A DNA stretch of 64,000 nucleotides from a virus (IMGVR_UViG_2778261223_000007:12132-76131), one strand, 5' to 3'. Counted from the stretch's first letter, positions 8,155 to 36,920 are shown. The notes: generated from the letters alone by a model not told the origin. Numbers and translations are program-made.

Positions 8155-8156
8155 TT

Positions 8157-8690
8157 ATGATGCACTTAAAAAATATTACTGCTGGCAACCCTAAAACAAA
8201 AGAGCAATACCAGCTAACAAAGCAATTTAACATCAAATGGCTTTATTCAGATGATGGAAAAAACTGGTATGAGGAACAAAAGAATTTCCAGCCAGACACT
8301 TTGAAAATGGTCTATGACCATAACGGCGTTATTATTTGTATTGAAAAGGATGTTTCAGCAATTAATCCGGAAGGCGCAAGCGTCGTTGAATTACCTGATA
8401 TTACAGCAAATCGCCGGGCTGATATTTCGGGTAAATGGATGTTCAAAGATGGCGTAGTGATAAAGCGAACTTATACCGAGGAGGAACAGAGGCAGCAGGC
8501 AGAGAATGAAAAGCAAAGCCTGTTGCAACTTGTCAGGGATAAAACCCAGCTATGGGACTCACAGCTACGGCTGGGTATCATTTCCGACGAGAATAAACAA
8601 AAATTAACCGAGTGGATGCTCTATGCGCAGAAGGTCGAATCCACAGACACCTCCAGCCTGCCAGTAACGTTTCCAGAACAACCAGAATGA
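8157..8690 (+). CDS. tail fibre assembly protein U
   Basis: 177 aa; N-terminus [22 protein letters not shown] is the classic Tfa/U-type start; immediately after the fibre gene. Confidence 0.8.
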   Translation: MMHLKNITAGNPKTKEQYQLTKQFNIKWLYSDDGKNWYEEQKNFQPDTLKMVYDHNGVIICIEKDVSAINPEGASVVELPDITANRRADISGKWMFKDGVVIKRTYTEEEQRQQAENEKQSLLQLVRDKTQLWDSQLRLGIISDENKQKLTEWMLYAQKVESTDTSSLPVTFPEQPE

Positions 8691-8694
8691 AACA

Positions 8695-8720
8695 AGGCCC
8701 GCTATCGGGCCTTAATTTTT
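8695..8720. terminator. bidirectional rho-independent terminator between convergent U and U'
   Basis: Hairpin AGGCCCG-CTAT-CGGGCCT followed by TAATTTTT. Confidence 0.6.
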
Positions 8721-9249
8721 ATTCAGGCTTTTGTGGCCATTCAGGATTTGCCGTATCCACACGGCTGACCAGAACACTATAGCGTTCCCATGACTCCAGT
8801 CGTGCGCGTTCCTCATCCGTCGCCATATTCAGCCTGACAGCGCGTTCCAGTGGCTGAATAACGTTTTCTGCTTCGGAAAGTAACGCGGCCTTTTGTGATT
8901 CGGCCTGTTGTTGTTGCTCGTCTGCCGTATAAATCCGTTTAACCACAGCTCCGTCCTTAAACATCCACTTCCCTGAATCATCGGCACGACGATTGGCTGT
9001 TATATCTGGAATCTCAACGACGCTAAAGCCTTCGGGATTAAGCGTTGAGGCATCTTTGGTTATGGCAACAATAATATTATTTTCGTCGTATACAATCTTT
9101 ATGGTGTCGTCCTGAAAGTTATTTACTTCTTCATACCAGTTTTTACCGTCTTCGGACCATAACCAGATAACATCAAAATTCTTTGTTAGCTGATATTGTT
9201 CTTTCGTTTTAGGATTTCCAGACTTAATATTTTTTAAATGCTGCATCAT
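8719..9249 (-). CDS. alternative tail fibre assembly protein U'
   Basis: 176 aa paralog of U on the opposite strand ([25 protein letters not shown]...), convergent with U inside the invertible segment. Confidence 0.8.
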
Positions 9250-10854
9250 TTACACCTGTGCGACGTTATACCATGTGCCATTGATGTATTTTTGTATTGG
9301 CCTGAAGATGGCTTCATCATCGCCATCTACTTCACCAATGATTCTTAATCCGGTAATTGCGTGTCCGGCTTTTTCATAACGACCACCACGCGCCATCAAT
9401 TGAACAACACGTGTGCCAAGTCGGACATCTCTCACATAGCGTGAGTCAAAATTGCCATAATTGCCGGGAATAACTTGCGCACCACAAAGCCAGTTACCGT
9501 TATTATCCATGTACGCCTGACCATCGGTGCCATTGGCTGTCCTTGAGTTATTAATCATGTAGATGCCAAATTGCTTGTTCCCCAGTCCACCTATCATGAA
9601 CTTTCGGTCGGCGTGATTCTGGCGAAGTAACGCCTGAGCGCTATCAGTGTTAACTATATTTTTCCCAAAGATAGCGTTGTTATCGCGCATCTGAATCCAC
9701 ATACCATTACTGCTGTTAATAGCAAAACGGTCTGAAAGTGTCTCCCCTGAAACATTAAGACCACGTCCCATCGAAACAGCGCCAGTAGCGTTATTAATCC
9801 ATAATGGCCTTAATCCGTTATAAGTCCCCATGTTGTCACCGGAGTTTGTCAACATGAAGTATGTATTTGAACCATCATTACGAATAAAGAATCCGTAATT
9901 ACCATAAGCAATACGTAGGCCGTTTGCTGATTTTGATATGACTTCGCCATTTACAATGGCATTGACAAGAACATACAAAGCATCCCATTTAAGATTCATC
10001 AGGTCTTTTGTTGTGGTACTTTGTTTGCTTCTCCATTTGAAATATTCATTGCCGTTGTCGCCTGTCTCAAACCACATGTATGAATCAGTATCGCTGTCGG
10101 CATCATTTTTAAAACCAATCTTCGCCCAGTCAGTATTCCGAATCCAGGCAAGGATTGAGTCGTTTTCAAAAGTAAGTCCACCGGACAAGGTATCGCCTGT
10201 CTTTTGAACCGCGTTATCAGCCTTGTTTACCGTTTCCTGTAGATTTAAATCTTCCGCCGTTAGCTCAATATTTTTAGAACCGTCAAACGAGACGCCGTTG
10301 ATAGTACATGCTATCTGCAATTTGGTCGCTGTAGCCGCATTACCAGAGGTGTCCTGATTCCCTTTAGCATTGACGCCGGGAACTGAATCTTTTGACGTAT
10401 AGATCTGTGCCCACTCGGACCATGCCGCAGCAGTGCTATCTCTTTTGGATCGAATGAAAGCAGGTGCATGAGCGCCATTTGTGCCACTCCAGCCAATGAA
10501 TAACTCACCTTCGCCAGCAGCGGTGGCACCTTTAAGGTGAAGCACATTGCCATAGGGGGAAGGGTAGCCATTGTTGTATGCCTCATACATCTGCAATCCA
10601 GTAGCAGCACCTTGCGTTGTACCGGTAAGCGCAGTAACGCGTCCTCTAGACGTAATTGTTGGTATCGAAATGTTCGTAGAACCATCGAACCTGACGCCAT
10701 TAATGTTTATGGCTGTTTTTAATTTCGTCGCGGTATCGGCGTTCCCTGTCAGCGCCCCGGTGATCCCGCCGTTGAAAGTCTGGCGTGCACTCCACGTGTT
10801 AGCCGTGCTCAACAGGGGGATCTTTTCACCGCTGGTACCGAGTTCTCTTAAACC
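9250..10854 (-). CDS. alternative tail fibre variable cassette Sv' (expressed only after inversion, no own promoter)
   Basis: Minus-strand frame is open from cixR to 9250; its first ~60 codons are identical to residues following the crossover point in S (STANTWSARQTFNGGITGALTGNADTATKLK...). Confidence 0.75.
   Translation of the reverse strand, partial: GLRELGTSGEKIPLLSTANTWSARQTFNGGITGALTGNADTATKLKTAININGVRFDGSTNISIPTITSRGRVTALTGTTQGAATGLQMYEAYNNGYPSPYGNVLHLKGATAAGEGELFIGWSGTNGAHAPAFIRSKRDSTAAAWSEWAQIYTSKDSVPGVNAKGNQDTSGNAATATKLQIACTINGVSFDGSKNIELTAEDLNLQETVNKADNAVQKTGDTLSGGLTFENDSILAWIRNTDWAKIGFKNDADSDTDSYMWFETGDNGNEYFKWRSKQSTTTKDLMNLKWDALYVLVNAIVNGEVISKSANGLRIAYGNYGFFIRNDGSNTYFMLTNSGDNMGTYNGLRPLWINNATGAVSMGRGLNVSGETLSDRFAINSSNGMWIQMRDNNAIFGKNIVNTDSAQALLRQNHADRKFMIGGLGNKQFGIYMINNSRTANGTDGQAYMDNNGNWLCGAQVIPGNYGNFDSRYVRDVRLGTRVVQLMARGGRYEKAGHAITGLRIIGEVDGDDEAIFRPIQKYINGTWYNVAQV
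10679..10854. repeat. inverted repeat, right arm (~176 bp)
   Basis: See left arm. Confidence 0.8.
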
Positions 10855-10868
10855 AAGGTTTAGGATTG
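10843..10868. other. cix-like crossover site (right): TTCTCTTAAACC-AA-GGTTTAGGATTG
   Basis: Inverted copy of the left site next to the 3' end of cin; resembles hix/gix consensus. Confidence 0.7.
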
Positions 10869-11420
10869 AAATGATGATGCCGGAAACTTCTTATAAAGCG
10901 TGGAAACAGCCACATCATAGATGATTGCAACCTGCTTACGAGGGATGCCCTTCTCCAGCAATCGCCGCATTTGCTGCCATGTTTCTTCTTGGTATTTAGG
11001 CCGACGCCCACCTATACGACCTTCTGCGCGAGCTGCATCAAGTCCAGCGCGTGTACGTTCAATGATAAGCTCACGTTCCATTTCTGCCAGCGCACCCATT
11101 ACGTGAAAGAAAAAGCGCCCCATTGGTGTACTGGTGTCGATGGAGTCAGTGAGACTCCGGAAGTTAATGCCTCTGTCACGCAGCTCTTCCACCAGCACAA
11201 CCAAGTGACGCATGCTGCGCCCAAGGCGATCTAACTTCCATACGACCAGGGTGTCACCTCTGGAAAGAATACGCAGAACCTTTTTTAACCCTGGGCGTTC
11301 AGCCTTTTTGCCGCTCGCCTTATCCTCAAAAATTAGCTCACATCCTGCGCTTTCAAGGGCGTTTCGTTGTAAAGCGGTGTTTTGGTCATTAGTTGATACG
11401 CGAATGTATCCAATAAGCAT
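10860..11420 (-). CDS. cin: serine DNA invertase (Cin/Gin/Hin/Pin family)
   Basis: 186 aa; MLIGYIRVSTNDQNT...VVWKLDRLGRSMRHL...SIDTSTPMGRFFFHVMGALAEMERELIIERT is near-identical in pattern to Pin/Cin invertases; adjacent to cixR. Confidence 0.9.
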   Translation of the reverse strand: MLIGYIRVSTNDQNTALQRNALESAGCELIFEDKASGKKAERPGLKKVLRILSRGDTLVVWKLDRLGRSMRHLVVLVEELRDRGINFRSLTDSIDTSTPMGRFFFHVMGALAEMERELIIERTRAGLDAARAEGRIGGRRPKYQEETWQQMRRLLEKGIPRKQVAIIYDVAVSTLYKKFPASSFQS

Positions 11421-11525
11421 ATGTCCCCCCTTGTATGTTAAGGGGGGAGATTCTAGAAGATGTCCTGTAAGGAAATAACAAACTGACTAAGTTAGTGGCG
11501 CATTAGATGTTATTTCTGGAGGGGT

Positions 11526-11852
11526 ATGTTTGCAGATTATGAAAATCTGGCTGTAGTAGTCATAACATCCCTACTAAGTGGAACCGGCGTATTCCTTCTC
11601 GGAGTTAGAGACGGGCGCATTTCTGCGTCCCTGCTCAATCTTGCGAGTGAATTGTTTACTGCGGTAACAGCCGGGCTTGCGGGGTATGGGGTGGCGGTTA
11701 GCCAAGAATGGCCTGAAGGTATCATTTTCTGCGTTGTTCTGATTGCCAGTAACAACGGTAGTGAAATTTTACAGGGCTTGAAGTCCAGAGCTAGTAACGT
11801 CTTGAATCTCTTAAGCGTAATAGCGAATGGGGGAAAAGGTGGAGAGAAATAA
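11526..11852 (+). CDS. small membrane protein, holin-like (P1 LydA-like by position and size)
   Basis: 108 aa with hydrophobic segments; first gene of the darA-like operon. Confidence 0.4.
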   Translation: MFADYENLAVVVITSLLSGTGVFLLGVRDGRISASLLNLASELFTAVTAGLAGYGVAVSQEWPEGIIFCVVLIASNNGSEILQGLKSRASNVLNLLSVIANGGKGGEK

Positions 11853-12298
11853 TGGGTAACTTTGGAAATTATTTCATTTTTATCATGGCATTTGTTGCCA
11901 TCATTGACCGTTTCATTTTTCGTCGCAAGAGTGTTGAGATTTTGAGTATTGGTGACGCTGTAGTGAAAGAATCCGCTATAGCATTTCCTGTTTCGCTACG
12001 TGTTAAGCGAAGCTGGGTGAGCAATGCTCAAATCGAATATTGGTTGCAAGACCTGAAAAATCCATCTGTGGTTATTTCAGGGAAAACGCGACCAGTTGAC
12101 GCCTCAAAACGCGGTGAGAGAGAAGAGTATTTGCTCATCGATACGAAATATCTTGAGCCAACGAAGTGGGATCTGAAAGTCACATTGACTAACGGTAACT
12201 GCCGACTGAATCCGCTTTATCGCATTTTCCCTATCAATGACTGCATAGAGCGCCAATTTACGATCGAAAAGCGTGAAGGAGACTGGGATGTCAAATAA
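11852..12298 (+). CDS. membrane-anchored protein (P1 LydB-like by position and size)
   Basis: 148 aa, N-terminal hydrophobic helix; start overlaps upstream stop. Confidence 0.35.
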   Translation: MGNFGNYFIFIMAFVAIIDRFIFRRKSVEILSIGDAVVKESAIAFPVSLRVKRSWVSNAQIEYWLQDLKNPSVVISGKTRPVDASKRGEREEYLLIDTKYLEPTKWDLKVTLTNGNCRLNPLYRIFPINDCIERQFTIEKREGDWDVK

Positions 12299-12908
12299 AA
12301 ATAATTATGTTCTTCTTAATTATGATGAGTTAAACGAAAAGGGGCTGTCAAAACTCGTCAAAGAAATCAGCAAAGGTGGTTACAAGATAGCGAGGGTGAT
12401 CCCTGCAAGTAATGGCAGGAAGAAAGATGGGATCATGACGCGCACGTTTACCCTTATTGGTATTGATGAACAGACAATGGAAGTTCAGGTTAACGATACC
12501 GGTGATATATCTGGGATCAAACTGAATGGTAAAACAGTACCGTTCAAGCCAGTAAAAACAATGTCGGCTTTGGGGCAATCTCTTGCGGCTTTATTTAATC
12601 GTGGAGCAACTTCTTTCCAGAAGTCACTAGCTCGAAAACTTGCTCGTGCAGCAAAAAATATTGATGACGGAAATAAGAAGCGGCAGGGAGTTAAATCTAA
12701 CGCTCAGAAATTAGCTGAAGCGAAAGAATCACGTGATGCACTCCGTGAAGATATCGCTAATGCTAACGACAAACTGTCTAAACTCCAGAGCAAGTCAGAC
12801 AAAGTAATGCAAGATACGGGTAATGTTAAAGCTGCCTTGTCTCAGGAAGTAGCTAAGACACGTGCTCTTAAAGAAGAAATCGCGCGCCTGGAGGATGAGC
12901 ATGATTAA
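12273..12908 (+). CDS. hypothetical coiled-coil protein in darA-like operon
   Basis: 211 aa, Lys/Ala-rich coiled-coil C-terminus; operon context only. Confidence 0.35.
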   Translation: MKETGMSNKNNYVLLNYDELNEKGLSKLVKEISKGGYKIARVIPASNGRKKDGIMTRTFTLIGIDEQTMEVQVNDTGDISGIKLNGKTVPFKPVKTMSALGQSLAALFNRGATSFQKSLARKLARAAKNIDDGNKKRQGVKSNAQKLAEAKESRDALREDIANANDKLSKLQSKSDKVMQDTGNVKAALSQEVAKTRALKEEIARLEDEHD

Positions 12909-14838
12909 CAATCCTTTACGAATTAATATTCAGTCTACTTTTGCTGATACGATCCCCGGCTATATGCCAAGTCGCTGGTCTTCAGAAGAATTAAGCGAAG
13001 ATGACCTGATTTTTGAGGCGGCGACCTTAGAAGATATTGAGCTTGCCTATATGGGCAATGAAATTCTGGTTGTGTCTGACGAAGCTATGTTTGAGTCCAT
13101 AACTACAACCAGAATTCGGTTAGCTCAAACAATGCGAGCTTTCGTCCGTGCGCTGAATCGTGGCCTGAATGGTACGAATATTATGGCAGGGACTGATGAA
13201 GCTGGGACCGATGAAAATGGACGTAATTGTATTGGTGGTGCGATTATCGGTCGTGTACGTCGGGTAGCTAATATCCCCGTTTTGACCGCGCAGATACCGC
13301 TTACTGACGGGCAGAGTACAAGCATAATTTTCCACTCTCCAACAGCTGACGGGGCAAAAATAAAGAGTAACGACGAGCTTGTTGCATTTCAGTTTTTACT
13401 TAATAAGCGTAACGTAACTCACGTTGTCGCCCCGATTGGTGGGAGAGATGTTTCTTTAAACCAGGTATGCCAGGCGCTATCTAATTTGATTGAGCGTAAC
13501 AGCGAAAAATTTAAGAAAGCAAAAGAGCGCCAGGACAAAATGAAGGCAGATATTGAGAGTTATCTCAATGAAGCAGATAAACTGGCAGAAGAACGGTCAA
13601 TAATGATTGATCAGGTGGAAGTTGCGCAACGAGGGCTGACTGAAAAGCGTGCTGCTCTTACGGAGATGCAAAAAAAACTTGATTCCCAGAAAGCCATCAA
13701 CGAGGAATTACAAGCAAAACGCGATAAATTGTTGTCTGCTAAAGGTGAAAAAACGAAAGAACGAGCGTTTAGTGACCAGCTGCGACATGTAAAACATAAT
13801 CTTGCCATTGACGGAAAAACAGTGCTGGATAATGGCGCTGAAGTTAATTATGTCACGTCCGGCAGTGATAATTTCGTTACGATAGTAGCACCTGAAGGTA
13901 AATTCAGTATTGATGCCAGTGCTGTCAAAGGAGGCAGTTTGGCAGATGCTGCAACCAAATTACTTAAAGCCTACCGAGAGCATAACGCAGATAAATATAA
14001 AGTTGATGTGTTACCAGGCCAGCAGGAAGACCCCGAACCACCACAGACAGACCCCGAGACGAACCCAGTATCACAACCAGAGAGCCAGGATGTAGGTAAA
14101 TACCACTATGCACTTCAATCTCGCCCGGCTGGTGTTGGTGCTGTGCCGGATGGAAATAAAGCCGTGCTTGATCGTCCTGACCAGGCTGATCAGTATTACG
14201 AATATGCTCGTCACGGTATCATTACGTATGACCGTAAACTGACAGATGAAGAAGTCAGCCAGTACGAGTTGCTCTATCTTCCTGATGAAGATGAGCTGAA
14301 AGATTTTGCAGGCCAATTGGTTGTGTCCAGCATGTCGAAACATATTGATGGCTATGTAGACCTGTTTGGCAGTGACCTGAAAACATTCAAGGCGCAAGTG
14401 AAAATTCTTTTCCGCAAAGCGTTTCCAAACGTGGCGTATCCACTTGGTGATGGGGAGAACCTTTTCATTATGGACGTATATAACGCCCTTCAAAATCATT
14501 CAAACGAAGTAACGCCAGAGCCTGAATTAGCACCTGTAGTTGAGCCAGAATCACACCCACAAACAGCACCAGAGCAACAGCCAACGCCGGAAGACGCTGA
14601 AGAAGCGGCAACTGAAGCTGATCAGGAAGCAGATAAAGCGTTGGAGTACCTTAAATCCGTCCCGGTGCAGTTTACATCTCGCGATCTGACGGTAATCAGT
14701 GCCGAACTTGACCATGTGCAGGAAGCTGCAAACGCTCTTATCAGTGCTGGTCGATACGACGAGAACGAATCAACGGTTGGCGCAGCAGTTGACTACCTGA
14801 TCAACATTCTGGCTGAAATTCAGCAGGGAGGTGCTTAA
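12901..14838 (+). CDS. darA: DarA-like head-associated antirestriction protein (candidate)
   Basis: ~646 aa from the ATG at 12901 (GGAGG 7 nt upstream); size and operon position match P1 DarA as I recall; Pro/Glu-rich linkers. Homology not verified. Confidence 0.4.
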   Translation: MINNPLRINIQSTFADTIPGYMPSRWSSEELSEDDLIFEAATLEDIELAYMGNEILVVSDEAMFESITTTRIRLAQTMRAFVRALNRGLNGTNIMAGTDEAGTDENGRNCIGGAIIGRVRRVANIPVLTAQIPLTDGQSTSIIFHSPTADGAKIKSNDELVAFQFLLNKRNVTHVVAPIGGRDVSLNQVCQALSNLIERNSEKFKKAKERQDKMKADIESYLNEADKLAEERSIMIDQVEVAQRGLTEKRAALTEMQKKLDSQKAINEELQAKRDKLLSAKGEKTKERAFSDQLRHVKHNLAIDGKTVLDNGAEVNYVTSGSDNFVTIVAPEGKFSIDASAVKGGSLADAATKLLKAYREHNADKYKVDVLPGQQEDPEPPQTDPETNPVSQPESQDVGKYHYALQSRPAGVGAVPDGNKAVLDRPDQADQYYEYARHGIITYDRKLTDEEVSQYELLYLPDEDELKDFAGQLVVSSMSKHIDGYVDLFGSDLKTFKAQVKILFRKAFPNVAYPLGDGENLFIMDVYNALQNHSNEVTPEPELAPVVEPESHPQTAPEQQPTPEDAEEAATEADQEADKALEYLKSVPVQFTSRDLTVISAELDHVQEAANALISAGRYDENESTVGAAVDYLINILAEIQQGGA

Positions 14839-15212
14839 TGACTATCTCTGTTTTAGACCGTCTGAAATTGGGTAAAGAGCTATCAGATTTAATGCAGGCG
14901 CAGAAAACCGCGCCAGTATTACAACGCGTCGCCATTGGTAAGCAGATTGTCGATCTGATGCTTAAACTGGGGTTGGGTACTGCCGCTCAACCGATGTCGG
15001 AACCGCAACCACAACCACAGTCTGATCCTGTTGCAGATGAAGTTCCTAAGATAGTGACTGACTTCCTGGGCGGCGTGTTCACAAAGTCCACACAAATGGA
15101 ATTTATTGATGCGCTGCGTGGGATCTCAAACTATGTTGGTGAGTTCCTTACGTTGGAGCAGGCTAAAGAGCAGACCATAAGCTGGGTGAAAGCCAACGGT
15201 TATGCCGGGTAA
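14838..15212 (+). CDS. hypothetical protein (DdrA-like position)
   Basis: 124 aa, ATG overlaps upstream stop; hairpin after stop. Confidence 0.35.
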   Translation: MTISVLDRLKLGKELSDLMQAQKTAPVLQRVAIGKQIVDLMLKLGLGTAAQPMSEPQPQPQSDPVADEVPKIVTDFLGGVFTKSTQMEFIDALRGISNYVGEFLTLEQAKEQTISWVKANGYAG

Positions 15213-15294: not shown

Positions 15295-16671
15295 TTGGAG
15301 TGTATTTTGAACAAATCAGTTACTTCTGCGCTTTCCGAGGCCGCAGATATTAACAGCGTCATTGCTCTGGTTTCTTCATTAGAGAGGAAAGAAACACGCC
15401 TGGGGCGAAGTAGCTACGTAGTCACCAGCAAAGGTGCAGAGGTAAAGACGGCTTTTAAGGTCGTTGATGCCAGCAGTCTGATCATTTCGAACAACCTTGA
15501 CGGTACGATTAACCCGGCCTTCCCGGAAGAACTCCAACCACGAGATCGTACCCGGCTATCCAGCAAACTCCAGGTTAACCGTATTGCCTCCGATTTACGC
15601 CCGGCACAATTAACGGATTCCGGTATGAGCAGCCACGGAGCGCCGATAGTTGGTCCGGACAACGTTGTTGAATCCGGCAACGGAAGGAGTATGGGTATCT
15701 GGCGTGCCTATGAGCAAGGACAGGCGGATGAGTATCGCCAGTACCTGATCGACCATGCGAAAGAGTTTGGTCTGAATCCTGACGAAATTTCGCAAATGTC
15801 TATGCCCGTACTGGTGCGAGAAAGACTCACAGATGTAGACCGCGCTCAATTTGCCCGCGATTCAAACATTAGCGATCTGCAAGAGATGGCAGCAAGTGAA
15901 AAAGCGTATGCGGATGCGCAATTTCTCACTGAGAGCGTCATGGCGCTATTTAATCCTTCAGATGATGGAAATCTGCTGGCGCGGTCCAATGATGCGTTTA
16001 TTCGTGCGTTTTTGCGCGAAATTGGCGATACAGCGACGGCAGGCTTGCTTACTGCCGATGGGCGTCCCACGAAACAGCTTATCGATCGCATCCAGAATGC
16101 AATTTTTGCCAAAGCGTACAAGGATGAAAGGCTTGTTCGGCTGGTGTCGGAAGAGCCAGATCCGGAAATGCGTAATATCCTGATCGCATTAAATACGGCA
16201 GCCAGCGATTTTGCGCAAATGCAGTCGCTGTCTGGCGATGTTCACCATGACACGGTAACCGGACTGGTAGACGGTATAGAGCAATTGAATGGTCTGGATA
16301 AACAGGCTATTGCAGCGCTACAGGAAGCAATTAACCTTGTTCGTGAAGCAAAAGATAACGGTCAGGCAGTAGAAGAGGTGATCGCACAGCGTGGATTGTT
16401 TGGAGATAGCACTCCGGAAGCAGAAGCGCTTGCTCTGTTTATTGTTGCCAACAACCGAAGCGCTAAGCGAATGGGGGCCGCTTTCAAGAAACTGGCGCAA
16501 AAAATTAACGATGAACTTATTCACCAACAACAAGCGTTAGGCGATATGTTCGGCGGCGGAGATGTCGATCTGCGTAGCATTTTATCTGCCGTTTCTGATG
16601 AAATTGAGACTGAGTTTGGCGAAGGTAAAGGGTTAATTTTTTCTATGTTTGAGCCAACCTCTGTTGGGTAA
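15295..16671 (+). CDS. hypothetical protein (DdrB-like position); start uncertain (TTG)
   Basis: 458 aa open frame; no ATG near the 5' end. Confidence 0.35.
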   Translation: MECILNKSVTSALSEAADINSVIALVSSLERKETRLGRSSYVVTSKGAEVKTAFKVVDASSLIISNNLDGTINPAFPEELQPRDRTRLSSKLQVNRIASDLRPAQLTDSGMSSHGAPIVGPDNVVESGNGRSMGIWRAYEQGQADEYRQYLIDHAKEFGLNPDEISQMSMPVLVRERLTDVDRAQFARDSNISDLQEMAASEKAYADAQFLTESVMALFNPSDDGNLLARSNDAFIRAFLREIGDTATAGLLTADGRPTKQLIDRIQNAIFAKAYKDERLVRLVSEEPDPEMRNILIALNTAASDFAQMQSLSGDVHHDTVTGLVDGIEQLNGLDKQAIAALQEAINLVREAKDNGQAVEEVIAQRGLFGDSTPEAEALALFIVANNRSAKRMGAAFKKLAQKINDELIHQQQALGDMFGGGDVDLRSILSAVSDEIETEFGEGKGLIFSMFEPTSVG

Positions 16672-16796: not shown

Positions 16797-17354
16797 ATGT
16801 CATCATTTACAGATTTGGTTTCAGCTCTTGCATGGCCATTGGTGTTTGTGTGGTTTGTTAATAAGTATGGGGTTGATATTAAGGAGTTAATAGTACGTCT
16901 GAGTAGATTCAAGATTGGAGTAGCTGAAGCTGAGTTTAATGCGGGACTAACCGCAGCAGAAGTATTAGCAACAGATGCATCAGTTGGGAATAGAAATATT
17001 AACAATGGTAATAATAACTCTGAATATATAAATAAAATCGCACAATTAGAGAGAATTGCTGATTTTTCACCTAGAGCTGCTATTATGGAGTCATGGTTGA
17101 TGGTAGAGGAGGCTGCCGGGCGCTCTGGTTTTATACAGGGAGGGTTAAAGCCGAAACGGAATCCAGAACTATTCATTGACTGGTTGATTCAAGAAGGAAA
17201 ACTTGAAGATTCCGCTGCTTTGCTGTTAAAACGGCTTCGCTCGCTAAGAAATGAAGCCGCGCACTTTCTGGATTTTGAAATCACCAGAAATGAAGCTGAA
17301 CGCTATATAAGACTTGCAGCGAAGGTTTCACAACTTATTGTTGATCCAGATTAG
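16797..17354 (+). CDS. membrane-anchored protein with C-terminal HEPN-like Rx4H motif (candidate toxin/abortive-infection protein)
   Basis: 185 aa; N-terminal hydrophobic helix LVSALAWPLVFVWFV; C-terminal LRSLRNEAAHF fits Rx4-6H; lies in a visibly AT-rich island. Confidence 0.45.
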   Translation: MSSFTDLVSALAWPLVFVWFVNKYGVDIKELIVRLSRFKIGVAEAEFNAGLTAAEVLATDASVGNRNINNGNNNSEYINKIAQLERIADFSPRAAIMESWLMVEEAAGRSGFIQGGLKPKRNPELFIDWLIQEGKLEDSAALLLKRLRSLRNEAAHFLDFEITRNEAERYIRLAAKVSQLIVDPD

Positions 17355-17398: not shown

Positions 17399-17731
17399 AT
17401 GAGAAATATAATCCTGGTTTGTGCTTTATTAGCTTCTGCATCAGTTTGTGCTGCGCCCTATAAGATAAAAATCCCTTCTGATCCAAAAGCTACTTATACA
17501 GTGCTGGATATTGGTCGTGAAGGTGAATATAAAACTATCATTACAAAAAGGGAAGGCCCATCTGGGACAGCATATTCGAAGAGAATATATAATTGCATGA
17601 CAAATGAAGTGAAGTATCTTGGTTCTGGGGAGACGCTTGAACAGATGAAAAATTCAAAACCTGATCCCAAAATGGGGGGGATTGTAAGTGGTTCCATCGC
17701 TGACTATGTGGGCAGGGAAGCGTGTAAGTAA
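17399..17731 (+). CDS. small secreted/periplasmic protein
   Basis: 110 aa with signal peptide MRNIILVCALLASASVCAAP; AT-rich island, downstream of the HEPN-like gene. Confidence 0.45.
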   Translation: MRNIILVCALLASASVCAAPYKIKIPSDPKATYTVLDIGREGEYKTIITKREGPSGTAYSKRIYNCMTNEVKYLGSGETLEQMKNSKPDPKMGGIVSGSIADYVGREACK

Positions 17732-23733: not shown

Positions 23734-23884
23734 ATTTTTCTCCCGGTCATGGGTTAATAAGTAGGCAAACTATGGGGAGTATGTGATTTTGACGGTAGTA
23801 TCGTCCCCCTGAAAATAACATTCTCCATACCCTCTCAACCGTACCGCATAGCGGAATTTTTTACGGTTTAGAGGGGGAAATCCT

Positions 23885-26800
23885 TTGGACAAACTACTTC
23901 ATTCAATCAGTGAAGCCTCCAGCTTAGGCGAACTGATTGAAATTGTTAGTCGGTTGCATAAATTACGTGCTGTTGCGACCTTTGGCGTCAGGAAAGCCGA
24001 TGGCGTCAGTATTCAGAAAACACGCCGGGCAGCAAATAATGCCGCAGTAAATCTTCTTAATTCCCTTCCGCCCGGCTTCGATGGGGCGAAATTAACTGAC
24101 GAACAACGTCAGATTCTTGCCGGGTATACCGGTGAAGGCGGCCTGACAGATGGTGAGGGCAGCCAATACGAATACTACACGCCACAGTTTATGGCTGAAG
24201 GTATATGGGATCTGTTTGCTGACTACGGTATTGATGGCGGGCACGTACTGGAACCATCAGCGGGCACAGGTATTTTCCAGGAGACAAAACGGCAGGGCAT
24301 GATAATGACCAGCGCGGAACTGTCTCCGATTTCTGGTCGAATAAACCAGCTTTTGCACCCGGAAGACGATGTGAATATCGGGGCGTTTGAGGCGCTGGCG
24401 GCGAAAGATGCAATGTATGACCACGCTGTTGGTAACGTACCGTTTGGTGAAGGGCGTTCCGGCGTTGCCGGGCTTGATCCGGCATATGCAAACGAGAAGA
24501 ACGTTGGCAATTACTTTGTGCTGCGCACGATCGACAAGGTTAAGCCTGGTGGGCTTATCGTATTGGTGGTGCCAAATGGCATGACCGATGGTACGAAATA
24601 TAAAAAATTGCGCGATAAAGTCAGCCGTAAAGCGGAATTTTTGGGCGCACATCGTATGCCTTCCGGTACGTTCAGCGAATCCGGTACAGATACCGTGGTG
24701 GACGTATGGGTATTGCGTAAACACCCGGAAACCTTCCTGGAGATGATCCCCGACACGGATGATTCAACACTCAAATCGGCAAACGTCCTTTGGGATACCT
24801 TCCTCAAAGGAAAATGGTTTACAACCGAAGGGAAGCGATTTGTTTACGGCGACATGGAACGTGCCAGCTTCCGCAATACCCTGGTGGTGAAAAAAGACGG
24901 TCGTGTATCCAATGAGTCGATGAAAACCGCGCTATCTCGTCGCTTTGATAGTCGCATCAATTGGGATTTGCTCGGCGTAACTACTCAGGCATGGCAGGGC
25001 GCGAAAGTGGGCGATAAACGCCTTGTAGGCGGTATCTGGCATGAGTTTGATGGTCTGAAATGGGTTAAGGACACGACAACCAAATCCTCCGCGCTTGATG
25101 TAAGTCGATATGGTGTTTCGACGTTTGGCGATCTGCAGATCGCGTTCCAGTCAACAAACGGGATTCTGGCTTTGTCATGGGACCAGATATCGGCGATCGC
25201 GTCCGACTATCCATCGGTTGTCAGTGATGAAGTGGCAGCAATGATTCGCTTTGCTGGCAAGCAGCGAGAAAAAGATAGAGAGCGCGTTATGCGCGGTGCG
25301 CTGATAGGGCAGTTGATCAACAAGGCACTTGATTTGCGTAACCTGGGGGTGAACGTTGATGACAAACTGGCAGATGCATCCCGCCTGGCGGCAGCAGAAG
25401 TTGCGAAGTATGGACCACCACACGCCATTAAGCTGAATGGGCTTGCTGAAGCTGGCGCTAAAAACTGGATGACGTTCACTGGCAATGTGAAACAGGATGG
25501 TTCCACTTCTGACCTTCTGGCAGGGCGACTTGATGTAACGGATGGTGCTGCCGGTATTGACTTTACACGTCCTGAACAAGTGATAGCACATCTTTTCAGT
25601 GATGTAGCCCTTAATCCTATAACGCTGGGAGACTTTCGTGAGGCGTTTGCTGGTGAACTGCCAGAGGACGACGACGCGGCCCTTGAATACCTGGCGAAAT
25701 TTGATGATATCGCTATTGATGGGTATGGCTGTCTGCTGCCGATGGACCGCGCCACCAGCGGCGATGTTGCAACCAAAACAGCACTGCTGGTGGGCTGGCG
25801 TGATGCGTCAACAGGTGAGCAGAAAGCGAACTTTGAGCGTCAGTTGGCGAAAATCGAAGAGAAACGCATTTTCACGCCACTAAATAAAGTCACCGTTAAT
25901 CTGAATGCCCGCTGGCTGGATCGCCGCTTGATAAAAGAGTTCTTGGCAGAGCAGGGCTATGACGAGTTTAAGTACACTGAACCTGATCTGAAGGTCGTCG
26001 ATGGCATTCTGGTATCTCCGGACGATTACGAAGGTAAGGACGGGGTATTTACCGGCTATCAGCTACGAACCGTAAACGGCAAAAACGGGAATGAGTTCAA
26101 GAAGGCCAACAATAAAGACGGCTTCCTGAACCAGTTAGAAAACTACCTGAACGGTGTTAAACCGCGTGGGCAGAACGCTAACGAGTACCTGGATAAAATT
26201 GCTCAACTGGAAGTTAGCTTTAACGACTGGTTACGCACCCACCCGCAGGCGGATCAGATAGCCCGTGACTATAACGACGCATTCAATGGTTTCATTCCGT
26301 TCACACATTCTGACGCACCGCTTGGCCTGGAAGGGATTAGTGGAAAGCGCATTCCTCTGACTTATCAGAATGAAGAAGTTCGGCGCTTGTCAGAAGATGG
26401 GCGTGGCATCATGGGATTTGGTACCGGGCTGGGTAAAACCACGACCGCGCTTGCGCTTGAGGCGTATAACTTCGAAACAGGTCGCACTAAACGCACGTGT
26501 ATTGTTGTTCCGAAGGCGGTTTATCAGAACTGGTATCACGAGGCACAGAGTTTCTACAGTGCTGATGCCTTCGCCAATATGATGTTTATCGGTTTGGATG
26601 AAGTTCGTGATGACAGCGGAAATATTCTGACCGCGCCGGTGCTTGATGAAAATGGCGAACCACGCCTCGACAGTAACGGGCAGCCTCTTACCAGAAATGT
26701 TGTGAAAGAGTCCTCCAGCGCCGTTATCGTTCAGCGTATGAACATGATCCCGTCGTCAAATTGGCGAACGGTCATCATGACAAAAGAACAATTCGCGTCT

Positions 26801-29800
26801 ATCCCGCTACGAGAAAAAACCATCGAGGAGAACTCACAGCAAGCTGTCTTTAATGCTGTGGAAATGGGGCGTCTTGACCTGGCGTCCGGTAAACACCGTG
26901 ATGCGCAGAAGAAGAACAAGATTAAGGATCAGGCCGCGAATACCGGTACAACGAAGAAGCAAAATATCCCGTACTTTGAGGATATGAACTTCGATAGCGT
27001 GATTGCCGACGAGGGGCATAACTACCGCAACTCCTTTAATGCCGGGCGTGAAGCGGGACAACTGGCATATTTGCCTAACCCGGCAGTATCCAAGATGGCC
27101 CGCGACATGGCTGTAAAAGCTGCGTACATGATGAAACGCAACAACGGGCGTGGTGTAGTCATGCTGACGGCAACACCGCTGGTGAACAGTCCGATTGATG
27201 CCTTCAACATGCTGTCTACTGTCATTCCGCAGGAAGAGTGGATGCGTATGGGCATCATTACGCCTGATGATTTCGTTCGTGTGTTTGGCAAAACAGCCAC
27301 AGTTCAGGTCCAGAAAATTTCCGGGGAAGTGGAAGAGAAGCAGGGGCTGGTGGGCTTCCAGAACCTTGACGGCCTGCGTGGTATTTTCCATCGTTGGGCC
27401 ACTCTGAAGACTGCTGCAGATGTCGGAGCGACGGTTAAAATTCCCGACATCATCGAGAACACCTTGCAGATCCCGATGACAGGGGAGCAGGAGACTGCTT
27501 ATGAAGAGCTTCGTAAGCGTGCTCAGGAGTTAAGTCGCAATGATGAGCTGACAGTCGATGAAAACGGGCATATCACTAACGACAAACCGGATGATTTCAT
27601 CTTCTCCATCATCCGTGACATGGATAAGGTTGCTATAGACCCGGATCTGTATGCCAGTGCGATTACATTCCAGTTCCCCGTTGAGCTTGCAGACCAGGTA
27701 AAAGCTATTGCTGATGCCTTGCCAAAAGTAGCTGGCGGTAAAGTGGCAGATGATGTTGATGAGGCCGAGGAAGACGGCGCTGGCGGGCTGGTCAGTACGC
27801 GTACCAGCAAGGTAGTGAAGACCGCTTTTAGTGAACATCCGACGCATGTTGAAATACGTGCCAGCATTGAACTGGAAGCTGAAATACTGAAGGCCATTGC
27901 GGCTGCCGGCATTGATATGCAGCAGGTATCGCACCCCATCCCGCCGAAGTATGCCGCGCTGATCGAAAATCTTCGTGAAGGTCTGAAGAACGGTAAGCAG
28001 ATCGTCTTTATTGATGAAAAAGCCCAGCACCAGAAGCTGCGCCGTATTATCGCCAGTGCACTGCAAATGCCGGAGCAGGAGATTGGCATTATCAATGCGA
28101 CGACAGTTAGCCAGGCTGGTGGCATCAAACTGAAGAAGGTGAATAAGCCGACCGAACCTACTCCAAACAAAAACGGTGAATACAAAGAAGGGGCATGGGA
28201 AACCTACTACAGCAAACTTGCCCAATATGAGGATTATCTCTCCGCTAAAAATGATGCTGGCCTTGAGGGCATGGAAGGTATTGCCGCCGACTATAACGAA
28301 GGTCGCACGCGCATCATAATCTGTAACAAGAAGGCTGAAGTAGGTATTAACCTGCACATCGGGACAACCGATATCCACCACCTGACACTACCCTGGACAC
28401 CAGCCAGTATCGACCAACGAAATGGGCGCGGTGCGCGCGTAGGTTCACCGCAAGAAAAGGTCAATGTTCACTACTATTGTGGCAAAGGCACATTCGATGA
28501 CTTCCGTCTGGATACGCTTAAACGTAAGAAAGACTGGATCAAGATGGTGATGACCTCCGACATGTCAGAGATCGCCAATGGTGATGCGGATGATGCTGAT
28601 GAACGCGCCATTATGCTGGCGGCAAACCCGGAAGAACGCCGCGCAATCATGGCTCGCCAGGCGCAAGAGCGTGAAGAACGTCTGAAACTGAAAGCACAGC
28701 GCGAGGCCAACAATGCTCTCGATATCTACCTGAAAGCGGCAAACGCCGCCGGAAAAGATATCGGCATGATGGAGACAGAACTGAAAAGCGCGATGGAACA
28801 GATAGAGTATTACCAGCGAAATCTTGACGACCTGATAAAAGCGGGTACGAACAGGAATGGGCAAAAATACGCGCTTGAGCAGTTGAGTAGCTACAGAAAA
28901 CGTGCGCGGGTGCTGCGGTTTGCGATCACCAGGGCAAAAGACGCGGATACCATAATGAAACGCTCTCGTGGTGATGTGGAGCGCGCTATTAAGTCTGGTG
29001 TGCTGGATATCAGTATCGATGTTATTCAGAACCCACAGGAATATATGCGCACTGACAAGAATATCCTGTTGCATAAAGGTAGTTATTACCGTGCAGTCAT
29101 TGATGATCGCGAAACAACAGCGATTGTCCGGGTGGAAAAAATTGACGGTGAAAAAGCACAATACCTCTGCCGTATCGCCTGGCTGGATAGAGCAAGTCGT
29201 TACGCTCGAGCACCGGGGTCAATCGTTACATTGCCGTTTGACTCTGTGATTGAAGCGGTAACTTTTGAAGAGGGGGTAGCTGAATCGCGCGCAACGGCTG
29301 CGCGAGGTGTTCAGTGCCACCAGCTATCAACAATACTTACTCGCGATCAGTTCTATGATGCTATTCGCAATGGGGTAATGAATGTTATTGCTGGTAAACC
29401 TGGTAATGCATGGGGCGGTGGGTCAGCTATTAAATACTGGGCATATCGCACAGATGATGGTCAGATCGCGCTGTCATCGGCCTATGATGGCGTGATAGGC
29501 CAAAAAATCGGGCGAGCATCGGATATAGCACCTGAGCGATGGATATATCCTGATGGCAACGACGAGGCGCTGAAGCGTGAAGTGGCAAAAATACAAGCCA
29601 GTGATAACCCGCTGAATATCGTGGACGGCGAGGGATTCCTCCAGGCATTGTATGGGTATGATTACATCCAGGGAATGCAGGCATGGGGCGCACAGGCAAC
29701 GATGGATGATGTTGCCCAGGAGTTCGAAAACTGGATGGCTGGGCGTGGTCTGTCAGGTCGTTCGCTTAATAAAGTCACTTCTGAAGATATTCTTAGCTTG

Positions 29801-30721
29801 TTCCGCAAACCGTCCGGAGAAGGTCTGGAATCATTCTGGAGGACCGTGCTGGCATACCGTTTATTCCAGGGCAGGATGAAAGCCTTTAGCAATATCGATG
29901 ATATTGAACGGATGTTTAATCAGGTCAAGATCGCGAAAATTAAGGCGAAGATCGAAAAAACACGTTCTGCGCTGGTGGCCTGGCGCGATGCATTGTTTGA
30001 GCAATATAAATCACTCAGTGATGCAGATGGATGGGCGGCATTGGAACAGCTGGCGAATAATGGGGTAGATGGAGCGAAACTCGCCATTGTTCAGGCTGAT
30101 AACCCCCTGGAATCACCGGCAGCACAGTGGATTAAGGTGGGGGCTGTCATCAATGCATTTGATGAAAAACACATTAGTAAGGACGATTTTGCTGATGCTG
30201 TTTCTGTTAATCGCCTGGTAGAAATGGCTACCCGCCGCGCCCGTGAGTTGAAAGACGGCGACTATGTGAATGAGTTGCCGGATACGCTCAAATCGGCAAC
30301 GTGGCAGGACTATGTATCGCTGAAAAACGGCGGGGCCACTGAATCAGAGATCGCGGAAAGGCTTGAGCAGGCTGAAAGCAAAAGAGAAGAGCAGGCGGCA
30401 GTGGCTGAAGCCAGAGCTGATGAAGCGGCGAATGATGACTATATCATTGTGGTTAATGATAAGCCGATTCGCGCTAAGGCGCGTGTTCGCGGGCGCTGGT
30501 GGAGCGTCAGCGAGGACGTTGGCGCGGTTTATCTCATTGCCGACCAACCAGGTTCCTCGACAATACGGAACGCCAAAGACGCGATTAAGAAGATTGGCGG
30601 GCGTTTCTGGAATTTTGAAGCAAACCCGGTTGCTGATGTGAACTTTGACCGTCCTGCATGGATGGTATCTACGCGTTACTCGGTAGATGAACTGCGTAAA
30701 ATAATCGCCGATGCGGCCTAA
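23885..30721 (+). CDS. darB: DarB-like antirestriction protein: N6-adenine methyltransferase-like N-terminal domain plus SF2 helicase-like domain
   Basis: 2278 aa, TTG start with GAGGGGG RBS; MTase-like NVPFGEG motif; helicase Walker A GFGTGLGKTT, DEGHNYRN box, motif VI QRNGRGARVG; size matches P1 DarB. Confidence 0.8.
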   Translation: MDKLLHSISEASSLGELIEIVSRLHKLRAVATFGVRKADGVSIQKTRRAANNAAVNLLNSLPPGFDGAKLTDEQRQILAGYTGEGGLTDGEGSQYEYYTPQFMAEGIWDLFADYGIDGGHVLEPSAGTGIFQETKRQGMIMTSAELSPISGRINQLLHPEDDVNIGAFEALAAKDAMYDHAVGNVPFGEGRSGVAGLDPAYANEKNVGNYFVLRTIDKVKPGGLIVLVVPNGMTDGTKYKKLRDKVSRKAEFLGAHRMPSGTFSESGTDTVVDVWVLRKHPETFLEMIPDTDDSTLKSANVLWDTFLKGKWFTTEGKRFVYGDMERASFRNTLVVKKDGRVSNESMKTALSRRFDSRINWDLLGVTTQAWQGAKVGDKRLVGGIWHEFDGLKWVKDTTTKSSALDVSRYGVSTFGDLQIAFQSTNGILALSWDQISAIASDYPSVVSDEVAAMIRFAGKQREKDRERVMRGALIGQLINKALDLRNLGVNVDDKLADASRLAAAEVAKYGPPHAIKLNGLAEAGAKNWMTFTGNVKQDGSTSDLLAGRLDVTDGAAGIDFTRPEQVIAHLFSDVALNPITLGDFREAFAGELPEDDDAALEYLAKFDDIAIDGYGCLLPMDRATSGDVATKTALLVGWRDASTGEQKANFERQLAKIEEKRIFTPLNKVTVNLNARWLDRRLIKEFLAEQGYDEFKYTEPDLKVVDGILVSPDDYEGKDGVFTGYQLRTVNGKNGNEFKKANNKDGFLNQLENYLNGVKPRGQNANEYLDKIAQLEVSFNDWLRTHPQADQIARDYNDAFNGFIPFTHSDAPLGLEGISGKRIPLTYQNEEVRRLSEDGRGIMGFGTGLGKTTTALALEAYNFETGRTKRTCIVVPKAVYQNWYHEAQSFYSADAFANMMFIGLDEVRDDSGNILTAPVLDENGEPRLDSNGQPLTRNVVKESSSAVIVQRMNMIPSSNWRTVIMTKEQFASIPLREKTIEENSQQAVFNAVEMGRLDLASGKHRDAQKKNKIKDQAANTGTTKKQNIPYFEDMNFDSVIADEGHNYRNSFNAGREAGQLAYLPNPAVSKMARDMAVKAAYMMKRNNGRGVVMLTATPLVNSPIDAFNMLSTVIPQEEWMRMGIITPDDFVRVFGKTATVQVQKISGEVEEKQGLVGFQNLDGLRGIFHRWATLKTAADVGATVKIPDIIENTLQIPMTGEQETAYEELRKRAQELSRNDELTVDENGHITNDKPDDFIFSIIRDMDKVAIDPDLYASAITFQFPVELADQVKAIADALPKVAGGKVADDVDEAEEDGAGGLVSTRTSKVVKTAFSEHPTHVEIRASIELEAEILKAIAAAGIDMQQVSHPIPPKYAALIENLREGLKNGKQIVFIDEKAQHQKLRRIIASALQMPEQEIGIINATTVSQAGGIKLKKVNKPTEPTPNKNGEYKEGAWETYYSKLAQYEDYLSAKNDAGLEGMEGIAADYNEGRTRIIICNKKAEVGINLHIGTTDIHHLTLPWTPASIDQRNGRGARVGSPQEKVNVHYYCGKGTFDDFRLDTLKRKKDWIKMVMTSDMSEIANGDADDADERAIMLAANPEERRAIMARQAQEREERLKLKAQREANNALDIYLKAANAAGKDIGMMETELKSAMEQIEYYQRNLDDLIKAGTNRNGQKYALEQLSSYRKRARVLRFAITRAKDADTIMKRSRGDVERAIKSGVLDISIDVIQNPQEYMRTDKNILLHKGSYYRAVIDDRETTAIVRVEKIDGEKAQYLCRIAWLDRASRYARAPGSIVTLPFDSVIEAVTFEEGVAESRATAARGVQCHQLSTILTRDQFYDAIRNGVMNVIAGKPGNAWGGGSAIKYWAYRTDDGQIALSSAYDGVIGQKIGRASDIAPERWIYPDGNDEALKREVAKIQASDNPLNIVDGEGFLQALYGYDYIQGMQAWGAQATMDDVAQEFENWMAGRGLSGRSLNKVTSEDILSLFRKPSGEGLESFWRTVLAYRLFQGRMKAFSNIDDIERMFNQVKIAKIKAKIEKTRSALVAWRDALFEQYKSLSDADGWAALEQLANNGVDGAKLAIVQADNPLESPAAQWIKVGAVINAFDEKHISKDDFADAVSVNRLVEMATRRARELKDGDYVNELPDTLKSATWQDYVSLKNGGATESEIAERLEQAESKREEQAAVAEARADEAANDDYIIVVNDKPIRAKARVRGRWWSVSEDVGAVYLIADQPGSSTIRNAKDAIKKIGGRFWNFEANPVADVNFDRPAWMVSTRYSVDELRKIIADAA

Positions 30722-30757: not shown

Positions 30758-31192
30758 ATGACGACATTAATTGACACTGTAAAACCGACGGAATCCTACC
30801 TTGAGGACATTTTGCCGCAGGCGCTCAATGGCAGGAGTGAAGAGGCGTTTCTGGATGCATATCTGAATGGCATGGTGGAAAGGCTGAAACGAGATCCACA
30901 GCTTTATCACCTTTATGGGCCGTGGTGGCCTGCGCTTAAAACGTTATTGCTGGAGCGCGGCGACATATCATTTGGACAAGTGGTAGATAGTGATGTGGCA
31001 GAGATCTACAAAATGAGTCGCCCGGCGCTTACGGTTTTGGCTGGGCATCTGTATTCGAGCGATCGCCTGGAAAATGACGCGGTATACAATCCTGTTCATG
31101 CTCTGGAAGTCGCACCTTATGCCGATGATACAGAGCCATACGTGTACACAAGTTACGACGAGTCTATAGAGAAATATCGAATTATGGGGTAG
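30758..31192 (+). CDS. hypothetical protein
   Basis: 144 aa ORF, ATG start 37 bp after darB. Confidence 0.45.
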   Translation: MTTLIDTVKPTESYLEDILPQALNGRSEEAFLDAYLNGMVERLKRDPQLYHLYGPWWPALKTLLLERGDISFGQVVDSDVAEIYKMSRPALTVLAGHLYSSDRLENDAVYNPVHALEVAPYADDTEPYVYTSYDESIEKYRIMG

Positions 31193-36844: not shown

Positions 36845-36920
36845 GGCCCCTTAGCTCAGTGGTTAGAGCTGGCGACTCATAATCGCACGGTCACCGGTTC
36901 AAGTCCGGTAGGGGCCACCA
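36845..36920 (+). tRNA. tRNA-Ile2 (anticodon CAT, lysidine type) or tRNA-Met
   Basis: 76 nt, near-identical to E. coli ileX over most of its length (GGCCCCTTAGCTCAGTGGTTAGAGC.GGCGACTCATAATCGC...GGTTCAAGTCC...GGGGCCACCA). Confidence 0.85.

Follow-up and report, generated by a model that had tools for sequence, protein, structure and literature searches.

In the viral DNA stretch IMGVR_UViG_2778261223_000007:12132-76131 (64,000 nucleotides (nt); the window) we analysed the long open reading frame (ORF) at positions 23885..30721 of the plus strand. Its best explanation as a whole, to which we give a probability of about 0.85, is that it represents the darB gene of a D6-type plasmid prophage and encodes a packaged antirestriction protein. 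The sequence comparisons described below put its identity as an orthologue of P1 DarB practically beyond doubt and place the window among the D6-like P1-type plasmid prophages. A DarB-type antirestriction protein had already been proposed in an initial annotation of this DNA, and the proposal is now supported by collinear homology to P1 DarB, by shared Pfam domains, by the annotation of phage D6 and by the presence of the other dar genes. The gene is already annotated publicly and is ordinary for P1-like phage-plasmids. The confirmation of the window as a D6-like P1-type phage-plasmid with a complete Dar antirestriction set is of annotation value and not new; what we can add is a corrected domain map of DarB and evidence for a C-terminal tail that is structured, under selection and private to the family.

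Using BLASTP, the predicted protein could be aligned end to end with P1 DarB (YP_006479.1, 2255 amino acids (aa)) with 40% identity over 2372 columns (1518 bits, E = 0). Calculated per block of 100 residues, the identity amounts to 29–68% up to residue 1600 and to 19–26% over residues 1601–2278, and at the DNA level only the region of helicase motif I (query positions 2421–2605) can still be aligned with P1. A domain search of the protein resulted in matches to N6_Mtase, Eco57I, SNF2-rel_dom, ResIII and Helicase_C, and P1 DarB shows the identical set of these five Pfam matches in the same order. Furthermore, phrog_1685 matches residues 1–2278, and phrog_10089 (‘DarB-like antirestriction’) is also matched. 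Both proteins have a common collinear layout, the helicase motifs and the motif IV sequence NVPF, and the two genes differ in their start codon, which is TTG in the window and ATG in P1. Similarity to DarB and matches to methyltransferase and helicase domains, whose absence would have spoken against the proposal, were hence both found.

The ORF had been described as a single frame of 2278 codons with a TTG start, and this description holds: with 2278 codons plus stop it is the longest ORF of the region, the next longest one overlapping it in any frame having 283 aa. There is good support for the TTG start. It represents the earliest possible start after the in-frame upstream stop, it lies 7 nt behind a Shine-Dalgarno sequence read from the DNA (GAGGGGG, 23871..23877, plus strand) and it is found at the same position in all seven D6-type darB alleles examined; in addition, the GenBank record of D6 gives an identical start and the alignment with P1 DarB opens at residue 1 in both proteins.

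At the DNA level the gene is 99.6% identical to orf15 of Escherichia phage D6 (ASR76325.1, GenBank MF356679), for which GenBank gives the wording ‘defense against restriction; similar to P1 gene darB’. Both are the same gene with the same TTG start, stop, length and neighbours, and they are 26 nt and 8 aa apart, so that the window represents a variant of a D6-like plasmid prophage and not the sequenced D6 isolate. The D6 record matches window positions 10228–43003 with 98.9%. D6-like P1-type plasmid prophages are a well documented group (e.g., PMC6799933), and PLSDB contains at least 113 plasmids that carry 80% or more of the gene; they are non-mobilizable, have a size of about 90 kb and derive from E. 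coli, Salmonella and Shigella.

To judge from these matches, DarB is built, from the N- to the C-terminus, of an N-terminal segment, a helical region ahead of the methyltransferase, a predicted gamma-class N6-adenine methyltransferase, a conserved middle part of 520 aa, a predicted SNF2-type ATPase/translocase and a tail of 720 aa (all positions within darB refer to the plus strand). All four motifs quoted in the initial annotation are found in the translation, namely the methyltransferase motif NVPFGEG at residue 184 and the helicase motifs I (GFGTGLGKTT, residue 844, nt 26414–26443), II (DEGHNYRN, residue 1042, nt 27008–27031) and VI (QRNGRGARVG, residue 1511, nt 28415–28444). The distance between the methyltransferase motif and the beginning of the helicase motifs, given there as about 700 residues, was measured as 660 and was therefore close. 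In order to follow these residues through the family, we compiled an alignment of 11 sequences consisting of the D6-type protein, P1 DarB and nine representatives from an exhaustive HMMER search, which are 31–54% identical to the D6-type protein. Vibrio parahaemolyticus and V. harveyi contribute proteins encoded on contigs of approximately 80–97 kb.

The helical region before the methyltransferase (residues ~35–95, 23987..24169) corresponds to LPD36 of Iyer et al. and carries a GxGG at positions 83–86, in which G83 does not vary and G85 and G86 hardly vary in the family alignment; no Pfam model matches this region. The following putative gamma-class N6-adenine DNA methyltransferase (residues 96–300, 24170..24784) is matched by Pfam N6_Mtase and Eco57I and by the type I methyltransferase subunit with PDB code 7eew (E = 9e-4). 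It contains the TP motif (T99, P100), the S-adenosylmethionine (SAM)-binding motif I EPSAGTG (residues 123–129, nt 24251–24271) and the catalytic motif IV NVPF (residues 184–187, nt 24434–24445). The SWI2/SNF2-type superfamily 2 helicase/translocase (residues 821–1560, 26345..28564) was assigned from SNF2-rel_dom (PF00176, 46.5 bits against a gathering cutoff of 24.9), ResIII and Helicase_C, the latter covering residues 1464–1520. EPSAGTG, NVPF, GTGLGKT, DEGH and QRNGRGAR are all intact, and both predicted enzymes thus appear to keep their catalytic motifs. The SAM-binding, catalytic, Walker A, DExH and arginine-finger residues are also invariant across the relatives: this applies to E96, T99, P100, L122, E123, P124, S125, G129, F131, G183, N184 and P186 in the methyltransferase, to G846, T847, G848, G850 and K851 in the Walker A motif, to D1042, E1043 and H1045 in the DExH box and to Q1511, R1512, G1514, R1515, G1516 and R1518 in motif VI. 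Between both enzymes lies a middle region without family assignment (residues 301–820, 24785..26344), which has no match in Pfam, shows 29–46% identity to P1 DarB per 100-residue block and contains many invariant columns in the family alignment; it may be a DNA-binding or target-recognition part.

Selection on the protein was analyzed by computing the ratio of nonsynonymous to synonymous substitution rates (dN/dS) per region among the seven D6-type darB alleles. Purifying selection acts on every region of DarB, with values of 0.01–0.03 for the methyltransferase, 0.04–0.09 for the middle region and 0.05 for the helicase. In residues 1706–2180 the ratio rises to 0.15–0.18, roughly threefold the value of the enzymatic core, and it falls to approximately 0–0.02 in the last 98 residues. 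From the low values of the methyltransferase and the helicase it follows that both are maintained by selection, which argues that catalysis matters for DarB. The synonymous rate itself (dS) is very uneven along the gene when the window is compared with the alleles of loci L006–L010, indicating recombinational mosaicism among D6-like plasmids; between the window and L006 it reaches 0.54 in the predicted coiled coil described below, as compared with 0.01 in residues 1–95 and 0.03 in the last 98.

The initial annotation had further described a long C-terminal third without recognisable motif. Such a part does exist, but its proposed beginning at about residue 1450 was too early, as Helicase_C covers residues 1464–1520, motif VI lies at residue 1511 and the helicase core reaches to about residue 1560; the unassigned tail therefore starts at about residue 1561 and extends to residue 2278. 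No family of Pfam, NCBIfam or the PDB matches these residues, and from PHROGs only the DarB phrog itself was obtained. Even with the threshold relaxed to E = 10, no Pfam match was found for the C-terminal 125 residues in nine members of the family. A likeness of the terminal motif to the small DUF5710-type domain found in primases and topoisomerases of plasmids, which we had considered, is unsupported, the Pfam scan being empty. When 1.84 billion representative proteins were scanned exhaustively with HMMER, 31 matches to the tail were obtained, and every full-length match is the own C-terminus of a protein of 2190–2300 aa. Thus, the tail is found only in DarB-sized proteins and is private to P1-type DarB. 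A word-indexed search with the single tail sequence or with a 10-sequence profile found only fragments that are 85–99% identical to the query, a profile of ten tails compared with the PDB sequences found only coiled-coil proteins (e.g., occludin, Rad50 and lamin), and hmmsearch against all six-frame ORFs of the window detected no paralogues of the tail sub-domains elsewhere (e.g., in DdrB, DarA or Ulx).

Structure prediction of the tail with AlphaFold2 (AF2) from the single sequence was poor, with a predicted local distance difference test (pLDDT) score of 42, and we used the model based on an alignment of 17 sequences (pLDDT 84). In this model the tail is predicted to fold into five parts, which are in order a hairpin, a barrel, a short mixed segment, a helical bundle and a terminal alpha/beta domain. 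The hairpin would be a long antiparallel coiled coil (residues 1571–1703, 28595..28993; AF2 helices at local positions 11–143, pLDDT ~85–94), followed by a small beta-barrel with an SH3/Tudor/KOW-like shape (residues 1720–1792, 29042..29260; AF2 strands at local positions 160–232). For the barrel Foldseek found local matches to Tudor domains with a probability of ~0.99 and target TM-scores of 0.65–0.79, but with E values of only 0.1–0.8, and the model-based assignment as Tudor/SH3-like is a weak one. The whole tail model gave no Foldseek match at E <= 0.001 in the PDB or BFVD. The predicted helical bundle (residues 1894–2181, 29564..30427) starts at a conserved YPD..DE.LK island and is the most variable part of DarB. 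The terminal alpha/beta domain (residues 2186–2277, 30440..30715; AF2 pLDDT ~75–90) has near-invariant alignment positions with the family signature F.AG....L.D..G..G.L..AK...K...GA.F...F.G.WW.I and is as constrained as the methyltransferase.

A catalytic role of the tail is unlikely, and the most probable function of its strongly constrained last ~95 residues is to provide a conserved contact to another protein, be it of the internal DarA/Hdf scaffold or of the exit pathway. One could imagine the tail as a private module of two parts, in which the fast-evolving helical and beta part tunes which restriction or defence complexes of the host are countered and the near-frozen terminal domain docks onto DarA/Hdf or guides the exit via portal and tail. 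We regard this idea as rather doubtful; if it were true, both the specificity and the delivery of DarB would map to a region that nobody has assigned. In any case the tail is not disordered filler, as it is structured, restricted to the family and under selection, and its map gives boundaries for truncation and domain-swap work.

The darA-like operon that had been located at 11.5–16.7 kb is indeed present and comprises homologues of LydA, LydB, Hdf, DarA, DdrA and DdrB, all encoded on the plus strand. At its head are lydA (11526–11852, 43% identity to P1 LydA) and lydB (11852–12298, 34% to P1 LydB), the holin and antiholin, followed by hdf (12288–12908, 40% to P1 Hdf), darA (12901–14838, 39% to P1 DarA) and ddrA (14838–15212, 33% to P1 DdrA), all five of which are also annotated in D6. 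The last gene, ddrB (15307–16671, 454 aa), shows 64% identity to P1 DdrB, but it is the P1 protein of 995 aa that is twice as long: window residues 4–454 align with residues 2–446 of P1 DdrB, and the C-terminal half of the latter, annotated as a possible metallopeptidase, is absent. The ORFs after ddrB (16797–17354 and 17399–17731) show no match to the P1 Dar proteins compared. Both genomes possess the hdf-darA-ddrA-ddrB operon, which in the window is located 7 kb upstream of darB, and in both ulx follows directly downstream of darB. The window ulx (30758–31192, plus strand) encodes 144 aa with 46% identity to P1 Ulx, corresponds to D6 orf14 and matches phrog_1629 (E = 2e-59), labelled ‘Ulx-like anti-restriction’. 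In P1 the portal gene adjoins darB, which is not the case in the window. A Vibrio relative with 34% identity keeps the P1 arrangement; its neighbourhood is of the P1 type with portal and protease genes upstream and with DarA_N/DarA_C genes, and it has a 145-aa ORF of unknown family at the position where ulx is found in the window. On a V. parahaemolyticus contig (locus L004), which belongs to a Vibrio relative of 34% identity, a gene for a 495-aa C5 cytosine DNA methylase (PF00145, 6498–7985) is located immediately upstream of the darB-like gene in the same orientation, and the window has no counterpart of it.

A P1-type late promoter (-22 box AAGTKAYT, N5, TANNNT) is absent upstream of both darB (23734–23884) and lydA (11421–11525), despite the lpa homologue of the D6 genome, and the pattern shows no enrichment in the window. 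As another candidate we considered the sequence CAAACT-N8-TA, which is present upstream of darB (23766) and lydA (11479), and rejected it, its count not being above chance and its other two copies lying inside genes. Scans for sigma-70 promoters and for terminators both remained within the shuffled expectation. Outside the dar genes, the tail-fibre C-segment of the window (6580–10866) is invertible and has the opposite orientation to that in the GenBank D6 record; it is bordered by inverted repeats (6580–6777 with 10669–10866, 93%; 6850–7215 with 10228–10593, 86%), and the cin invertase gene lies next to it (10860–11420, minus strand). Between 35154 and 36920 (plus strand) ARAGORN predicted four tRNA genes, Asn-GTT, Thr-TGT, Ser-TGA and a tRNA with a CAT anticodon (36845–36920); of these, the D6 record contains no more than the first three and places them on the other strand.

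What DarB might do in a D6-type phage can be outlined from P1. There, DarB is a head protein of approximately 40–45 copies that is loaded as the last of the Dar proteins (PMC9024508; PMC12810830), it is required against EcoB and EcoK with its deletion leading to a specific sensitivity (PMC9024508; PMC11109961), and its specificity extends to EcoK and EcoB and not to EcoA (PMC12810830). DarB has also been described as the archetype of a ‘DNA methylase-helicase dyad’, with which the conserved features of the window protein agree and for which Iyer et al. suggested a translocating methylase (PMC5512222). Following these reports, DarB would enter the procapsid late in infection through its N-terminus in about 40 copies, with its loading depending on Hdf, DarA, DdrA, DdrB and Ulx as in P1. 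It would then leave the capsid together with the DNA and protect this DNA, in cis, against EcoKI/EcoBI-like type IA enzymes, the SNF2 motor tracking along the entering duplex and the fused adenine methyltransferase modifying the DNA and/or the motor displacing type I complexes before they translocate or cleave. This mechanism of a motor plus a methyltransferase is the likeliest single model, and we propose it tentatively. It is supported by the invariance of the catalytic residues, by the strong purifying selection on both enzymes and by the fact that EcoKI and EcoBI sites are not avoided: with 8 EcoKI and 15 EcoBI sites in the window there is a need for an active defence.

Several points weigh against the assignment as a packaged antirestriction enzyme. 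Packaging, ejection and antirestriction would all be transferred to the D6-type protein from P1 only, and for P1 itself the mechanism of DarB has been stated to be ‘not defined’ (PMC11109961). In P1 the first 30 residues of DarB are sufficient for capsid targeting, with a signal lacking a defined consensus (PMC9024508). The corresponding 30 residues in the window (23885..23974, plus strand), which we assigned by their position only, are identical to P1 DarB at 8 of 30 positions, and P1 residues 6–10 (MGVFR), implicated in targeting, read HSISE and are not conserved; such a diverged N-terminus fits a joint divergence with Hdf, DarA, DdrA and Ulx, which are diverged to the same degree. The half-length DdrB implies that the assembly pathway may differ from that of P1. 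On the side of the methyltransferase, the Pfam score for N6_Mtase (PF02384) of 20.4 bits is exactly the gathering cutoff of 20.4, compared with 31.6 bits for P1 DarB, and motif IV reads NVPF instead of the canonical NPPF. It is nevertheless confirmed as motif IV, because relatives carry NPPF or NPPY there. Also, the fact that P1 DarB is effective against EcoK and EcoB but fails to cover EcoA is not readily accounted for by methylation. Finally, plasmid-based Dar assays are confounded by Chi-dependent restriction alleviation, and this artefact also affects the sole reported data on a catalytic mutant, which were given as data not shown (PMC11109961). Concerning Chi itself (GCTGGTGG), we counted 36 copies in the 64 kb (24 on the plus and 12 on the minus strand), with about 2 expected for an 8-mer on two strands; seven of them lie inside 23885–30721, and the same enrichment has been reported for P1, whose darB has 11.

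A different view of the same packaged protein is that it protects by physical occlusion, with a 250-kDa DNA-binding protein, present in about 40 copies, coating or escorting the DNA and sterically blocking type I enzymes, so that methyl transfer itself would not be protective. Shielding is the standing hypothesis of an EcoSal Plus review and derives from the fact that Dar protects the packaged DNA only in cis (PMC12707154); the specificity for EcoK and EcoB and not for EcoA would fit an interaction at the protein level better than bulk methylation (PMC12810830), and the large structured tail with its predicted coiled coil and possible Tudor/SH3-like barrel could offer binding surfaces. If catalysis were dispensable, however, the invariance of the catalytic residues across relatives of 31–54% identity would be hard to explain, the methyltransferase has the lowest dN/dS in DarB, and about 40 molecules are too few to coat ~90 kb of DNA. 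We therefore hold occlusion to be unlikely, if still a serious contender, and leave the weight that remains beyond it and the motor-plus-methyltransferase mechanism to mixed or other mechanisms.

The main role of a packaged, early-acting DarB could also be something other than type I antirestriction, such as a function against BREX or other defences, in genome circularisation or in early transcription. Dar is indeed reported to protect against BREX too (PMC12707154), SNF2 motors commonly remodel protein–DNA complexes (PMC5512222) and the D6-type Dar set differs from that of P1 in its truncated DdrB and the diverged N-terminus of DarB. As the deletion of P1 darB results in a specific EcoB/EcoK-sensitive phenotype (PMC11109961; PMC9024508) and nothing in our analysis points to one of these roles, we regard this as improbable. 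Even further from our data is a prophage-encoded defence or restriction enzyme directed against other incoming DNA in the manner of DISARM, BREX, Zorya or a type ISP/III-like methylase-helicase. It was suggested by local NCBIfam and PADLOC matches to the DrmD, DpdE, ZorD and BrxHII models and by the methyltransferase-plus-helicase layout that is common to type I and III restriction-modification enzymes (PMC5512222). The matches are confined to the generic helicase lobes and their scores lie far below the family cutoffs (DrmD 44.5 bits against 610, DpdE 31.7 against 500), for which we rejected a defence system; moreover, no nuclease domain was found in the Pfam, NCBIfam and PADLOC scans, no partner genes of DISARM-, BREX- or Zorya-type systems are adjacent, and the full-length match is P1 DarB, a virion protein. 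Such an enzyme is thus scarcely credible, and a virion-packaged antirestriction protein remains the preferred reading.

Compared with other known systems, a packaged DarB would resemble the internal proteins IPI* and IPIII of phage T4, which are likewise antirestriction proteins that an N-terminal signal directs into the head and that leave it together with the DNA, an analogy drawn in PMC9024508. The T4 proteins are, however, small inhibitors processed by the prohead protease and have no sequence relationship to DarB, a 250-kDa protein with two predicted enzymes. The combination of a DNA-tracking superfamily 2 motor with a gamma-class N6-adenine methyltransferase is likewise found in type III and type ISP restriction-modification enzymes (PMC5512222); unlike these, DarB has no detected nuclease domain and would be delivered by the virion and act on behalf of the incoming DNA. 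Further counterparts are the polyvalent proteins of phages and conjugative elements described in 2017 by Iyer et al., among them the giant DarB-like proteins of podophages of the Bcep22/PEp14 type, in which an LPD36-like region, an EcoKI/TaqI-like adenine methyltransferase with a TP motif and a SWI2/SNF2 ATPase follow each other in the same order (PMC5512222). These proteins carry other effector domains, and it is the tail of 720 aa, found only in P1-type proteins of approximately 2200–2300 aa, that sets DarB apart from them.

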